NCBI RefSeq assembly: GCF_003334765.1
Contig: NZ_QOWT01000032.1
Strand: one strand, 5' to 3'
Length of the DNA stretch: 45,825 bases
Source: Escherichia coli
GTDB lineage: Bacteria > Pseudomonadota > Gammaproteobacteria > Enterobacterales > Enterobacteriaceae
Position 1 is the stretch's first letter. Every line of letters starts with the position of its first letter. The translations under genes were made by a program, and so were the position numbers. This document shows, piece by piece, positions 1 through 40,210 of this stretch. The notes beneath the pieces are model-generated. The model was given only the letters and a program-made list of their open reading frames with translations. It ran no database searches and was not told the DNA's origin.

Positions 1-71
1 GGTGATGACGGGATCGAACCGCCGACCCCCTCCTTGTAAGGGAGGTGCTCTCCCAGCTGAGCTAATCACCC
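1..71 (-). tRNA. valZ: tRNA-Val (anticodon UAC), truncated at its 3' end by the window edge
   Basis: Positions 1-71 are identical to positions 6-76 of the complete tRNA-Val copy at 300-375; position in operon matches valZ. Confidence 0.9.
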
Positions 72-220
72 GATACTGCGCTGGATACTACAAACTACTT
101 CCACCGAACCCACCGTCATTAGTGGTGGGTCGTGCAGGATGACTCGCTTCGCTCGCCCTACGGGCCGTTGCTGACGCAACGTTATCCTACACGCTTAACA
201 TCTGTCTTCGATGTTAAAAC
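72..220 (-). repeat. tRNA operon spacer module (149 nt) containing a 17-nt copy of the tRNA-Lys 3' terminus at 123-139
   Basis: 123-139 tggtgggtcgtgcagga equals the first 17 nt of the tRNA-Lys genes on this strand, then diverges; module is about 85-90% identical to 376-510 over its first ~70 nt. Confidence 0.6.
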
Positions 221-296
221 TGGTGGGTCGTGCAGGATTCGAACCTGCGACCAATTGATTAAAAGTCAACTGCTCTACCAACTGAGCTAACGACCC
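221..296 (-). tRNA. lysW: tRNA-Lys (anticodon UUU)
   Basis: 76-nt reverse complement gives a canonical tRNA-Lys with TTTTAAT anticodon loop and encoded CCA end. Confidence 0.95.
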
Positions 297-299
297 GAG

Positions 300-375
300 T
301 GGTGGGTGATGACGGGATCGAACCGCCGACCCCCTCCTTGTAAGGGAGGTGCTCTCCCAGCTGAGCTAATCACCC
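300..375 (-). tRNA. valT: tRNA-Val (anticodon UAC)
   Basis: 76-nt reverse complement GGGTGATTAGCTCAGCTGGGAGAGCACCTCCCTTACAAGGAGG... with encoded CCA; 3-nt gap to lysW. Confidence 0.95.
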
Positions 376-510
376 GATACTACGCTGGATACTACAACTA
401 ACTATGTTAGTGGTGGGTCGTGCAGGATGACTCGACTTCGTCTCGCCCTTCGGGCCGTTGCTCATGCAACGTTATCCTTCACGTTTTACTACCGCTTCCA
501 CCTTAGCGAT
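376..510 (-). repeat. tRNA operon spacer module (135 nt) containing a 17-nt copy of the tRNA-Lys 3' terminus at 411-427
   Basis: Same architecture as 72-220; two stems are conserved between the copies with different loops (gccc-tac/ttc-gggc and cgttgc-tgac/tcat-gcaacg). Confidence 0.6.
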
Positions 511-586
511 TGGTGGGTCGTGCAGGATTCGAACCTGCGACCAATTGATTAAAAGTCAACTGCTCTACCAACTGAGCTAACGACCC
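511..586 (-). tRNA. lysT: tRNA-Lys (anticodon UUU), first gene of the operon
   Basis: Identical to the 221-296 copy. Confidence 0.95.
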
Positions 587-750: not shown

Positions 751-1542
751 TTACATCGCGTTCAGACGTTTTTGTGCCTGTTTAGCGCCATCAGTACCAG
801 GGTATTTACTGATAACCTGCTGGTATACGGCTTTCGCTTTTGCGGTGTCACCTTTGTCCTGCATGATGACGCCGACTTTAAACATCGCATCTGCAGCCTT
901 TGGTGACTTCGGATAGTTTTTCACTACCGAAGCAAAATAGTACGCCGCATCATCTTTTTTACCCTTGTTGTAGTTTAACTGACCCAGCCAATAATTGGCG
1001 TTTGGCAGGTAAGTTGAATCAGGGTAATTTTTGATGAAATTCTGAAATGCCACCATTGCGTCATCCTGGCGGGATTTATCCTGCACCAGCGCAATAGCTG
1101 CATTGTAATCCGTGTTTGCATTACCGCTTTTCACCGGCGCGCCAGCATTCGCAGTACCAGCATCAGCTGTCGGCGTCGTTGATGCCGCCGCACCGCTTTG
1201 ATCGCCGCTGGTTGATTGCGCCGCTGCACCACCGCTGCTGAGGCTGTCGATCTGCAACAGGATCTGCTTTTGCCGCTCCACGACCTGATTCAGTTGATAC
1301 TGATTTTCCTGAATCTGACCACGCAGGGAATCAATATCGGATTGATTATCAGAAAGTTGTTGCTGGAGTTGGGTTAAAAGCTGGCTGTGAGCATTAGAAA
1401 TACGCTCAAGTTGAGTGACGCGGTCTTCGACCGAGCCTGAGCCGACACTACTGATTGGTGCCTGAGCAAAAGCGGCCCAGGGGGCCGCTATACCAACCAG
1501 TAACGACAGACTCAATAGTTGATGTCTGAAGTTACTGCTCAT
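751..1542 (-). CDS. cpoB: Cell division coordinator CpoB (YbgF), TPR-repeat periplasmic protein
   Basis: 263-aa ORF with signal peptide, coiled-coil region and C-terminal TPR repeats; last gene of the tol-pal cluster. Confidence 0.93.
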   Translation of the reverse strand: MSSNFRHQLLSLSLLVGIAAPWAAFAQAPISSVGSGSVEDRVTQLERISNAHSQLLTQLQQQLSDNQSDIDSLRGQIQENQYQLNQVVERQKQILLQIDSLSSGGAAAQSTSGDQSGAAASTTPTADAGTANAGAPVKSGNANTDYNAAIALVQDKSRQDDAMVAFQNFIKNYPDSTYLPNANYWLGQLNYNKGKKDDAAYYFASVVKNYPKSPKAADAMFKVGVIMQDKGDTAKAKAVYQQVISKYPGTDGAKQAQKRLNAM

Positions 1543-1551
1543 GCAATTCTC

Positions 1552-2097
<546 letters not shown>

Positions 2098-18211: not shown

Positions 18212-18378
18212 GTAGGCCTGATAAGACACGTTAAACGTCACATCAGGCATCGCTTGTCGGATGCGGCGCTAGCGCCTTATCCGACCTACATTGGTGGTCC
18301 CGTAGGCCTGATAAGACGCGTCAGCGTCGCATCAGGCTTCAATTGCCGGAGAAGGCGATAATGCCTTATCCGGTCTAC
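18212..18378. repeat. BIME: four alternating REP elements in the sucB-sucC intergenic region
   Basis: gtaggcctgataagacacg...catcaggc; cggatgcggcgctagcgccttatccgacctaca; second Y and Z copies follow. Confidence 0.85.
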
Positions 18379-22613: not shown

Positions 22614-22731
22614 GCCTGATGCGCTGCGCTTATCAGGCCTACGGGTAATGACTTGTAGGCCGGATAAGGCGTTCACGCCGCATCCGGCACTGGTTGCCTG
22701 ATGCGACGCTTGCGCGTCTTATCAGGCCTAC
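22614..22731. repeat. BIME: three REP elements in the sdhB-sucA intergenic region
   Basis: gcctgatgcgctgcgcttatcaggcctac; gtaggccggataaggcgttcacgccgcatccggca; gcctgatgcgacgcttgcgcgtcttatcaggcctac. Confidence 0.85.
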
Positions 22732-40080: not shown

Positions 40081-40210
40081 GCCTGATGCGACGCTTGACG
40101 CGTCTTATCAGGCCTACGTATTTCCTGCAATTTATTGAATTTGCACAAATTTGTAGGCTGGATAAGGCGTTCACGCCGCATCCGGCATCTGGGCTCGATT
40201 GCCTGACGCG
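40081..40210. repeat. BIME (REP Y + REP Z + partial REP) between convergent dtpD and phr
   Basis: gcctgatgcgacgcttgacgcgtcttatcaggcctacg; gtaggctggataaggcgttcacgccgcatccggca. Confidence 0.85.

Follow-up and report, generated by a model that had tools for sequence, protein, structure and literature searches.

The window (the whole stretch of Escherichia coli DNA analysed, 45,825 nt or 45.8 kb) starts inside the E. coli lysT-valT-lysW-valZ operon (Table 1). The operon lies on the minus strand, in which direction it is transcribed, and its gene order was taken from the RefSeq annotation of a strain that is 99.9% identical. A preliminary description of this DNA had noted a tandem duplication of the Val-Lys unit and, indeed, positions 1-93 and 305-397 are 99% identical. 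It had also noted a copy of the tRNA-Lys 3' end in both long spacers. These copies, called remnants here, are exact but are 18 nt long instead of the 17 nt proposed, the corresponding 19-mer being found only inside the genes. Each remnant begins in the 3' half of the T-loop, includes the 3' strands of the T-stem and the acceptor stem, and ends with the CCA. The 17-mer occurs four times in the 45.8-kb window, always on the minus strand, in the two genes and the two remnants, against a chance expectation of about 1e-6. A promoter scan of positions 1-800 gave no match to the sigma-70 consensus, and the sole terminator-like match in the scan of these positions is a spacer hairpin (HP1, see below) read on the non-transcribed strand.

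Table 1. Features of the tRNA operon at the start of the window, in the order of transcription.
Feature	Position	Strand	Evidence and remarks
tRNA-Lys(UUU), lysT, first gene of the operon	511-586	-	ARAGORN; Rfam
lysT 3' trailer	484-510	-	GGUGG (498-502) complementary to CCACC of lysT 3' end
Short-form RtT module 1, lysT-valT spacer	411-483	-	Rfam RtT 411-579, 58.8 bits; own model R1 97.7 bits at 411-489
Module 1, closing helix	474-483 with 419-428	-	one A.G mismatch
Module 1, HP1	456-471	-	CGUUGC-AUGA-GCAACG
Module 1, HP2	445-455	-	GCCC-GAA-GGGC
Module 1, HP3	431-445	-	
Module 1, tail	411-418	-	
Remnant 1, 18-nt exact copy of tRNA-Lys T-loop-to-CCA end	411-428	-	ATCCTGCACGACCCACCA
valT leader, distal 35 nt of lysT-valT spacer	376-410	-	entire spacer in ST131
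tRNA-Val(UAC), valT	300-375	-	ARAGORN; Rfam 65.9 bits
tRNA-Lys(UUU), lysW	221-296	-	ARAGORN; Rfam 79.2 bits
lysW 3' trailer	194-220	-	hairpin UUAACAUC-GAAGACA-GAUGUUAA at 195-217
Short-form RtT module 2, lysW-valZ spacer	123-193	-	Rfam RtT 123-289, 54.9 bits; own model R1 87.7 bits at 123-199
Module 2, closing helix	184-193 with 131-140	-	
Module 2, HP1	166-181	-	CGUUGC-GUCA-GCAACG
Module 2, HP2	155-165	-	GCCC-GUA-GGGC
Module 2, HP3	143-155	-	
Module 2, single-stranded tail	123-130	-	ACCCACCA
Remnant 2, 18-nt exact copy of tRNA-Lys T-loop-to-CCA end	123-140	-	ATCCTGCACGACCCACCA; closing helix 3' strand and tail
valZ leader, distal 51 nt of lysW-valZ spacer	72-122	-	sole spacer segment left in ST131 and HYM1
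tRNA-Val(UAC), valZ, cut at window edge	1-71	-	Rfam tRNA 56.9 bits, 3'-truncated; identical to 305-375

The two long spacers share a module which, in the transcript, consists of about 56 conserved nt located 5' to the remnant. The preliminary description placed this shared stretch after the remnant, as it appears on the plus strand; having read the non-transcribed strand, it overlooked the remnant as a structural strand of the module. Its estimate of 85-90% identity between the two modules agrees with ours of about 86% (9 mismatches and a 2-nt gap over 79 columns), and the two hairpins that it reported with the same stems and different loops, HP1 and HP2, are both present as stated. It did not include a third hairpin, HP3, or the pairing of the remnant with CGUG(A/U)AGGAU which closes the domain.

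When folded in isolation, both modules give minimum-energy structures in which a 10-bp closing helix encloses the three hairpins (module 1: -27.7 kcal/mol, z = -3.6, with 0 of 200 shuffles as good; module 2: -30.7 kcal/mol, z = -3.0). In this domain of about 74 nt, CGUG(A/U)AGGAU is paired with the first 10 nt of the 18-nt remnant, HP1 has the form CGUUGC-NNNA-GCAACG, HP2 is an invariant (G)CCC-GNA-GGG(C) and HP3 is a short variable stem flanked by CGAG...CGAG, while ACCCACCA forms a tRNA-like single-stranded 3' tail outside the closing helix. Since the 5' strand of the closing helix resembles the end of the acceptor 5' strand followed by the T-stem 5' strand, the module, as modelled, is an acceptor/T-stem minihelix of the cognate tRNA with the T-loop swapped for a conserved core. 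This concrete fold of the short form, with the tRNA remnant as a working helix strand, is added by the present analysis. An acceptor plus T-stem helix with a free NCCA-type 3' tail and a foreign insertion is also found in the tRNA-like domain of tmRNA and in the tRNA-like module of the Y-RNA-like YrlA. In contrast to these mimics, the spacer modules have only a partial acceptor helix, of 3 bp, and the core in place of the T-loop. They have no sequence or model similarity to either mimic; the YrlA model reaches only 19 bits against a 69-bit threshold, and does so on the real tRNAs.

The module in each long spacer belongs to the RtT repeat family (Rfam RF00391), of which it is a short form truncated at the 5' end. 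The RtT covariance model matches both spacers above its curated gathering score (58.8 and 54.9 vs 45 bits), in alignments that fill model positions 1-59 with the T-arm of the genuine upstream tRNA-Lys and contain a 44-nt insertion. On the module 1 spacer alone (405-508), the score is 41.1 bits, under the 45-bit threshold, and the match is limited to positions 49-130 and flagged as 5'-truncated; the copies in the window are thus a truncated variant. Matches over RtT positions 1-130 are obtained for the lysQ-distal (46.7 bits) and lysV-distal (47.3 bits) copies. There are five RtT matches in the full operon, one behind each tRNA-Lys, and one more behind lysV: a module follows each of the six tRNA-Lys genes of E. 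coli. The PGAP label "RtT sRNA" is attached to the lysQ-distal copy and to neither of the two window copies. Like RtT, the window modules immediately follow a tRNA gene, share its strand and form part of the tRNA operon transcript, and their 3' ends reproduce 18 of 18 nt of tRNA-Lys including the CCA, as those of the tyrT units do with tRNA-Tyr. At related loci, 102 of the 111 extra tRNA 3'-end copies lie behind the core.

RtT was reportedly first described by Bösl and Kersten in 1991, as 178-bp repeats together with the rttR RNA of the tyrT operon. The modules in the window share with the rttR/tyrT repeats the core (an AACG-hairpin, CCCGAAGGGCGAG, a short hairpin and CGAGUMAUCC), the position just downstream of a tRNA gene in the transcript, a cognate T-loop-to-CCA ending and a tendency to repeat. 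Unlike full RtT, they do not include model positions 1-48 (the GGAUGAGAA junction, the GAACC...GGUUCGA hairpin and the tandem-GA hairpin) and their closing strand directly adjoins HP1. Moreover, their remnant is derived from tRNA-Lys and not, as in tyrT rttR, from tRNA-Tyr, and they are located between tRNA genes and not behind the last. The earlier view of these sequences as structured spacers holds for the structural constraint but missed a family already known and curated in Rfam. This re-identification by itself changes little; among what is added here is evidence that one core is found behind at least seven kinds of tRNA across Gammaproteobacteria.

The sample used to analyse this constraint comprises 119 distinct relatives from Gammaproteobacteria, linked to Lys, Arg, Tyr, Pro, Ser, Gln and Asp tRNAs. 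They were gathered with a pattern which fixes HP2 and GAGUMAUCC and their alignment (A2) was fitted to the model. Compensatory changes on both sides occur at all six HP1 pairs and at the three counted HP3 pairs, with 97% of cells paired (n = 119). The whole structure is 86% paired, compared to 26-44% with slid partners, and none of 500 shuffles reaches the observed values. The HP2 motif, CCCGNAGGG, is invariant across the family and shows conservation without covariation. Covariation across relatives, which the preliminary description proposed as a check, is therefore found in HP1 and HP3 and not in HP2. An independent parse of 162 modules identified an HP1 stem of at least 6 bp in 78%, compared to 1% of shuffles; the 5' arm of HP1 takes 46 different forms and the HP3 segment 91. 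The compensatory changes in HP1 and HP3 and the invariance of HP2 support selection on structure. Hairpin covariation alone cannot distinguish RNA from single-stranded DNA; the wobble counts in the stems (13 G.U vs 6 A.C) favour the transcribed strand only weakly.

The closing strand follows the type of tRNA: it is CGUGAAGGAU for Lys, GGGGAAGGAU for Tyr, GGGAGGAU for Arg and GGGGACUGGGAU for Gln (12/12 paired). Of 12 closing-helix pairs, 9.1-9.4 form with the module's own remnant and 7.5-7.7 with foreign remnants. These values are from an anchored 12-position count, strict contiguous pairing being too harsh because of bulges and mismatches. A set of 24 different short-form modules, taken from about 10 species of enterobacteria, shows almost no variation in the stems of HP1 and HP2, but free variation in the loops, at three of four positions in HP1 and at the middle one in HP2. 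Similarly, of 74 module positions compared between E. coli and Citrobacter werkmanii, 3 are different and each of these falls in a loop; in the flanks, the count is 9 of 63. These loop-only differences, with the compensatory changes in HP1 and HP3 (n = 119), uphold the part of the original suggestion by which the stems are under structural constraint and are not a neutral duplication scar. Gene conversion could contribute to the identity of the E. coli paralogues.

The modules are dispensable and their boundaries are precise. ST131 has kept all seven tRNAs of the operon and lacks all five modules, which are deleted exactly at the 18-nt repeats, leaving spacers of 35, 2, 51, 3, 48 and 33 nt; strain HYM1 lacks two modules. 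In complete E. coli genomes, the type-B spacer segment is covered to at least 80% in 3745 of 5426 and the type-A segment in 3550, and about one third have no detectable copy of each spacer type. These counts were obtained with module-internal queries; 100-nt queries spanning the junction do not discriminate between alleles since their flanks are joined across the module. Some spacer positions in P. gergoviae and Ps. vulneris are also module-free. Citrobacter has an orthologous copy in the lysT-valT spacer, in the same flanking context, which implies that the E. coli polymorphism at this site is a deletion and not an insertion. Recombination between the tRNA 3' end and its remnant, which form 18-nt direct repeats, removes modules and gives rise to the module-full, partial and module-less alleles found within E. 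coli; modules may also have been gained, and tandem arrays formed elsewhere, by the same route. Frequent complete loss in successful lineages such as ST131 indicates that any function is dispensable or redundant. Such loss together with strong structural conservation deserves explaining, and ST131, a natural knock-out of all five lysT-operon copies, provides ready material for testing RtT RNAs.

Overall, we consider it probable that these short-form RtT modules are released as a stable, tRNA-tailed by-product RNA, and we infer that such a by-product RNA is the most likely role of the module. Cleavage by RNase P at the 5' end of the following tRNA, combined with cutting or trimming of the A/U-rich flanks by RNase E or 3' exonucleases, would free the trailer and module together. 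This RNA of about 100 nt would be shortened at its 3' end to the remnant CCA as in a tRNA, with the closing helix providing protection, and the resulting stable by-product would be made 1:1 with tRNA-Lys. Such trimming agrees with the annotated 3' end of K-12 rttR (171 nt), which extends from 8 nt past tyrV to the CCA of the first tyrT remnant. Release of rttR from the tyrT transcript and other tRNA operons has been reported (PMC4986893; PMC3318445). In PMC4176162, the lysT cluster is described as one polycistronic transcript processed by RNase P, the long spacers being also cut by RNase E. The same study attributes tRNA separation to RNase P acting at the mature 5' ends, which it finds both necessary and sufficient, gives the RNase E cuts a back-up role only, and reports precursors, in RNase P mutants, from Northern blots with spacer probes.

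The preliminary description had suggested that the hairpins are processing determinants, which would guide cleavage by RNase E, P or III and be needed for maturation of the flanking tRNAs. Their position between tRNAs and the resemblance of the helix and CCA tail to an RNase P substrate would suit such a role, as would cleavage of four long spacers by RNase E when RNase P is inactive, said in PMC4176162 to stimulate processing. As a requirement, however, this is not supported. The module-free spacers of ST131, which has the same seven tRNAs, rule out an essential processing role; spacers without modules also occur in HYM1, P. gergoviae and Ps. vulneris; separation is attributed to RNase P in the source just cited; and modules are present past the terminator of the last gene (lysQ, lysV), with nothing downstream to process. 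We therefore regard a processing determinant as very unlikely. A regulatory spacer RNA of the 3'ETS-leuZ kind would extend the by-product reading without excluding it: the excised module would pair with sRNAs or mRNAs, or bind a tRNA 3'-end or stringent-response protein, tuning a pathway with tRNA-Lys transcription. Conserved unpaired junction nucleotides (the GNA loop and CGAG...CGAGUMAUCC) beside variable stems are typical of a tertiary fold or protein partner, a tandem GA motif in RtT has been reported from covariation analysis (PMC7657543), and secondary sources report that rttR affects the response to amino-acid starvation or limitation (PMC4986893; bioRxiv 10.1101/2024.07.17.603846). 3'ETS-leuZ is likewise a spacer RNA excised from a polycistronic tRNA precursor by tRNA-processing nucleases, possibly with a life of its own (background in PMC10455298). 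In contrast to the RtT module, a closed multi-helix domain with a tRNA-like tail in a large repeat family, it acts via a short single-stranded pairing region and Hfq. The module loops vary just where a pairing seed would be expected to be conserved, and ST131 has lost the modules of the whole operon. We consider a regulatory role rather improbable.

Elements with tyrosine integrases leave attL/attR duplications of tRNA 3' ends, and one class of their sites has a T-loop sublocation. The spacers similarly include an 18-nt T-loop-to-CCA direct repeat with presence/absence alleles bounded by it, ST131 and HYM1 providing precise empty sites. A neutral scar without sequence constraint, either a tRNA-Lys pseudogene that has decayed or an att duplication left by an island that integrated and was later deleted, would explain the remnant as what a tRNA-targeting integrase leaves, together with the tRNA-derived appearance of the closing helix 5' strand (CGU + GAAGG) and the dispensability of the modules. 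It would not explain compensatory changes at every HP1 and HP3 pair across the family, differences between E. coli and Citrobacter modules confined to loops while flanks diverge, or a single structured core beside many different tRNAs across Gammaproteobacteria. Only about 80 nt separate the repeats, and these include no integrase gene, island cargo or other island remains and have no genuine match among 50,697 phage records; neither ARAGORN nor the Rfam tRNA model finds a cloverleaf in 72-220 or 376-510, where only T-stem and acceptor strands are left. A scar is therefore highly implausible. Another possibility is a selfish repeat, a miniature non-autonomous element which enters the tRNA T-loop, brings its own 3' end to restore the gene and displaces the old end downstream, the hairpins serving mobilisation (as RNA or single-stranded DNA) and not a host function. 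In keeping with this, the alleles are bounded exactly at the 18-nt repeat, and this repeat starts at the same T-loop site (...GGTTCGA|ATCC) whatever the tRNA type; one core is attached to at least seven tRNA identities; one MAG (17 loci) and Tahibacter contain dispersed copies without linkage to tRNAs; and module loss is frequent in E. coli. Two Photorhabdus species carry 22 and 15 tandem units with a 64-nt core between GGTTCGA and ATCC and a near-intact tRNA-Lys body (0-6 mismatches in 58 nt), but these could also come from crossover of the tRNA T-loop with the long-form GGUUCGA. The modules are not associated with any recombinase or other mobility gene, or with terminal inverted repeats. A blastn search of 50,697 phage records with the Tyr unit and the lysT spacer recovered only mis-filed Salmonella chromosome contigs and one unannotated 7.4-kb "Salmonella phage" record. 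Furthermore, the polymorphism at the lysT-valT site, whose copy is orthologous in Citrobacter, is a deletion, and deletion or duplication at an 18-bp direct repeat needs no dedicated machinery. We consider a mobile repeat unlikely. It is rather doubtful, too, that the RtT core is not a host gene but a tRNA-targeting element of an unrecognised kind, a structured unit of about 65-100 nt, which colonises the T-loop between GGTTCGA and ATCC, supplies or duplicates the T-loop-to-CCA segment and forms arrays that then decay to modules such as those of the E. coli spacers; if so, the Photorhabdus arrays would represent a young stage and the copies of Tahibacter and the MAG, which have no tRNA remnants, a free-living relative.

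RtT modules also resemble REP sequences and BIMEs as short GC-rich hairpin-forming repeats in transcribed intergenic regions, with a copy number that varies between strains. They differ in that the enterobacterial modules are tied to tRNA 3' ends in one orientation, and in having a multi-helix junction with an invariant CCCGNAGGGCGAG core instead of a single REP palindrome. A scan of viral contigs with the 15-base core CGGCCCGNAGGGCGAG proved non-specific and was set aside: nearly all of the 120 loci are collagen-like GPQGE repeats within GC-rich phage genes, and only one (L071) is a true RtT array.

Coding potential was also considered and rejected, the ORFs in 60-620 being at most 54 aa long, overlapping the tRNAs and having no conserved frame. 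One of 31 aa (370-465) takes its AUG start from the variable HP1 loop, in one copy only, and reads the core in a frame other than that of tpr in the tyrT repeat. Two further pairings involve the spacer segments outside the modules. The stem of the lysW trailer hairpin is also kept in the lysY spacer, with a different loop, and GGUGGGU of the valZ leader can pair with ACCCACC of the remnant tail (108-130), a hairpin which is present in the minimum-energy fold.

The repeated modules in the two long spacers of the lysT operon are a real, structured, short variant of the already known RtT family. Positions 1-760 of the window are 99.9% identical to E. coli chromosomes and lie downstream of cpoB, with every gene on the minus strand; in a near-identical strain, the RefSeq annotation lists the genes as cpoB, Lys, Val, Lys, Val, Lys, Lys, Lys, nadA. 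The interval singled out in the preliminary description, 72-510, comprises the lysW-valZ spacer, lysW, valT and the lysT-valT spacer. Its tandem Val-Lys unit and its two hairpins with differing loops are present as described, and the module identity, put there at 85-90%, was found to be about 86%. The tRNA-Lys 3′-end copy in both spacers is indeed exact but measures 18 nt (ATCCTGCACGACCCACCA), not 17, and spans the 3′ half of the T-loop through CCA. The shared stretch was said to follow this remnant, which is a plus-strand reading: in the RNA that stretch precedes the remnant on its 5′ side.

Positions of the tRNA genes, spacers and module parts in the window, and of related arrays and dispersed core copies in comparison loci outside it (L-numbers)
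Feature	Position	Strand	Extent	Source
tRNA-Val, cut	1-71	-		ARAGORN/Rfam
lysW-valZ spacer	72-220		149 nt	
tRNA-Lys remnant, lysW-valZ spacer	123-140		18 nt	
Closing helix 5′ strand, lysW-valZ spacer	184-193			predicted fold
tRNA-Lys(UUU), lysW	221-296	-		ARAGORN + Rfam
tRNA-Val(UAC), valT	300-375	-		ARAGORN + Rfam
lysT-valT spacer	376-510		135 nt	
tRNA-Lys remnant, lysT-valT spacer	411-428		18 nt	
Closing helix 5′ strand, lysT-valT spacer	474-483			predicted fold
tRNA-Lys(UUU), lysT	511-586	-		ARAGORN + Rfam
Photorhabdus caribbeanensis arrays (NZ_RCWB01000021)	L127 8824-9668, L128 1-700, L129 5238-7900			
P. asymbiotica arrays	L231 1580-2400, L232 8760-10440			
Dispersed core copies	L130-L146 (MAG SZAS LIN-96), L173, L187, L236-L239 (Tahibacter soli)		17 loci in the MAG	

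The Rfam RtT model (RF00391, gathering score 45) matches both spacers, with 58.8 and 54.9 bits. The complete operon contains five such matches, one behind each tRNA-Lys, and lysV, the sixth tRNA-Lys gene, also has one; the K-12 tyrT locus, in which the family was defined, carries four units at 133-138 bits. PGAP applies the label "RtT sRNA" to the lysQ-distal copy only. Since the spacer by itself reaches 41.1 bits, with a match confined to model positions 49-130, the window copies are a 5′-truncated short form of RtT; in the full-window alignment the T-arm of the genuine upstream tRNA fills the absent 5′ part of the model.

Folded in isolation, each module adopts a single dominant predicted structure (-27.7 kcal/mol, z = -3.6, and -30.7 kcal/mol, z = -3.0). 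Ten positions, CGUG(A/U)AGGAU, are predicted to pair with the first ten bases of the remnant in a closing helix around three hairpins, HP1 (CGUUGC-NNNA-GCAACG), HP2 (GCCC-GNA-GGGC) and HP3 (a short stem with a GAA loop), leaving the tail ACCCACCA unpaired. The CGAG...CGAG flanks of HP3 could form tandem G.A pairs, and PMC7657543 mentions a tandem GA motif for RtT. In sequence, the 5′ strand of the closing helix combines CGU, as at the end of the acceptor 5′ strand, with GAAGG, which resembles the T-stem 5′ strand (GCAGG in the tRNA); the module therefore looks like the acceptor/T-stem minihelix of its cognate tRNA with the T-loop swapped for a conserved core. The tyrT units show an equivalent resemblance (GGGGAAGGAU against AUCCUUCCCC).

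Within 24 distinct short forms, HP3 and the closing helix covary; the HP1 and HP2 stems are invariant (98.6% and 99% of cells paired), with variable loops. A covariance model built from the short-form alignment was used to search 100 sources (the window and 99 loci), yielding 137 aligned matches, 119 of them distinct. In this family alignment, which was fitted to the model and whose sample had HP2 and GAGUMAUCC fixed by the search pattern itself, both-side changes occur at 6/6 pairs of HP1 (97% of cells paired), 1/4 of HP2 (93%), 3/3 of HP3 (97%) and 18/23 of the whole structure (86%, against 26-44% when partners were slid). The covariation score is 0.27, compared with at most 0.06 in controls, and 0/500 shuffles attain the observed values. 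HP2 is essentially an invariant CCCG.AGGG, with 32 A.C at the outer pair. An independent parse recovered an HP1 stem of at least 6 bp abutting HP2 in 78% of 162 unique modules and in 1% of shuffles; it distinguished 46 HP1 5′ arms and 91 HP3 segments. The Edwardsiella hoshinae short form has CAUCGC/GCGAUG in HP1, two compensatory changes relative to E. coli. Stem covariation beyond E. coli is seen for HP1 and HP3 across the family, but for neither HP1 nor HP2 among the 24 short forms. The selection on structure proposed in the preliminary description holds up for HP1 when the family is taken as a whole, and also for two helices it had not noticed; HP2 is a conserved motif.

The closing strand tracks the tRNA type (for Gln, GGGGACUGGGAU with AUCCUAGUCCCC, 12/12 paired), and closing strands pair at 9.1-9.4 of 12 positions with their own remnants versus 7.5-7.7 with foreign ones. 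Both strands may descend from the cognate tRNA, so that the match need not mean later selection. Citrobacter werkmanii carries a lysT-valT module at the equivalent site between recognisably similar flanks: the module differs from that of E. coli at 3/74 positions, all in hairpin loops, and the flanks at 5/27 and 4/36.

Scanning one genome per species for CCCGNAGGGCGA-N(6-20)-GAGTMATCC gave at least 120 loci. The named loci among the matches listed are nearly all gammaproteobacterial (Enterobacterales, Thioalkalivibrio, Salinisphaera, Marinobacterium, Rheinheimera, Tahibacter and others); Mariprofundaceae MAGs account for two. The loci listed contain at least 167 modules ending in T-loop-to-CCA copies of many tRNAs; in them, the terminal 15 nt of a local tRNA recur as 111 extra copies, 102 of which the core precedes, and core-preceded copies derive from Lys, Arg (three anticodons), Tyr, Pro, Ser, Gln and Asp tRNAs. 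In about ten of the enterobacterial species listed, short forms with identical GGAUAACGUUGC...GCAACGGCCCG stand behind both tRNA-Lys and tRNA-Arg(ACG). Spacers of tRNA-Arg(ACG) clusters in Citrobacter, Enterobacter, Superficieibacter, Serratia, Kosakonia and E. coli (L124, L150, L151, L167, L180, L206, L229, L234, L243) hold short-form modules with this Lys-type core, whose closing strand and remnant match tRNA-Arg, not tRNA-Lys.

In Serratia oryzae (L205 5352-6460), long-form Lys modules alternate with partial copies containing the 5′ strand and first hairpin only (GGAUGAGAACCGUAAAGGUUCG...); the core therefore undergoes internal deletions. A predicted prophage contig (L071 9900-10730; IMG/VR UViG 2521172693) carries, next to a 5′-truncated tRNA-Ser at its edge, a tandem array of RtT-like units whose remnants are of tRNA-Ser(CGA) type (AATCCCTCCCTCTCCGCCA); every unit has its own terminator-like hairpin.

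Modules are absent from several alleles. ST131 (L246, NZ_CP103710.1 3261828-3264042) keeps all seven tRNAs, has a module at 0/5 sites, spacers of 35, 2, 51, 3, 48 and 33 nt and one terminator, behind lysQ. HYM1 (L244) lacks modules in the lysW-valZ and lysZ-lysQ spacers, where tRNA-Lys is followed directly by the window's post-remnant sequence. In both, the empty-allele boundaries fall exactly at the 18-nt direct repeat, and since the Citrobacter copy is orthologous, the empty ST131 lysT-valT site is best read as a deletion between these repeats. Some spacer positions of P. gergoviae and Ps. vulneris are also module-less. At megablast sensitivity, the lysW-valZ-type segment (141-220) is covered to at least 80% in 3745/5426 complete E. 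coli genomes and the lysT-valT type (429-510) in 3550/5426, each in one to four places per genome; about one third have no megablast-detectable copy, for each type.

The ST131 allele, together with module copies behind operon terminators, contradicts the view that the modules are a required processing signal, and the processing role suggested in the preliminary description is unsupported as a requirement. Covariation, and divergence confined to loops, likewise contradict a neutral scar or tRNA pseudogene. A scar left by an integrase would account for the T-loop-to-CCA repeat and the precise empty sites, but integrase and cargo are absent, as is the element from a phage collection (blastn, 50,697 records), bar mis-filed Salmonella chromosome contigs and one unannotated 7.4-kb record.

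It is possible that the modules are a selfish or mobile element, as tandem arrays in two Photorhabdus species and many dispersed core copies in one MAG and Tahibacter soli would suggest. The arrays comprise 22 and 15 counted units at about 175-bp spacing. In each unit the tRNA-Lys body is almost intact, with 0-6 mismatches over its first 58 nt, but is split in the T-loop, exactly between GGTTCGA and ATCC, by a 64-nt RtT core, after which the usual 3′ end and trailer follow. Several units are reported by ARAGORN as tRNA-Lys genes of 73 nt, and such units may therefore be mis-annotated as tRNAs. The dispersed copies (GGACUGCG.AGGCAGGAUGCCGRAGCGAAC-HP1-CCCGNAGGGCGAG-HP3-CGAGUCAUCC) end without a tRNA remnant, and their closing helix (in Tahibacter, AAAGCUGGA with UCCAGCUUU) has no relation to any tRNA. 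The representatives scanned match no Rfam family at threshold, and the copies may form a repeat or RNA family akin to RtT that has so far gone undescribed.

According to PMC4176162, which does not mention the repeats, the lysT cluster is transcribed as a single RNA of more than 1100 nt, from which RNase P, proceeding from the 3′ end, separates the tRNAs; RNase E cuts in the four long spacers, mainly with RNase P inactive, and the Lys pre-tRNAs have long 3′ trailers that exonucleases trim. The annotated K-12 rttR RNA starts 8 nt after tyrV and stops at the first remnant's CCA. RNAs of about 98-100 nt, ending in ACCCACCA and protected by the closing helix, would by analogy be expected from the lysT spacers.

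One hairpin, UUAACAUC...GAUGUUAA, recurs in the 3′ trailers of lysW (195-217, minus strand) and lysY (L001 2345-2372); its stem is the same in both while the 7-nt loop differs (GAAGACA and AAACUCA), a third instance of this pattern within the operon. A GGUGG(G) motif 7-9 nt downstream of CCCACCA (498-516 and 108-130, minus strand), also found in the lysZ trailer, could pair with the lysT 3′ end and with the tail of the lysW-valZ remnant; such pairing would sequester the CCA end within the precursor. Between the cpoB end and the lysT leader (709-742), a perfect 12-nt inverted repeat (ACACGACCAGAA / TTCTGGTCGTGT, 10-nt loop) is possibly a cpoB terminator or stabilising hairpin. Further above-threshold Rfam matches in the window, at 1513-1651 (-), 18215-18286 (-), 22658-22728 (+) and 40110-40152 (-), are the CpoB/ybgF thermometer (142 bits), two naRNA4 (REP-derived) elements and the ES036 sRNA.
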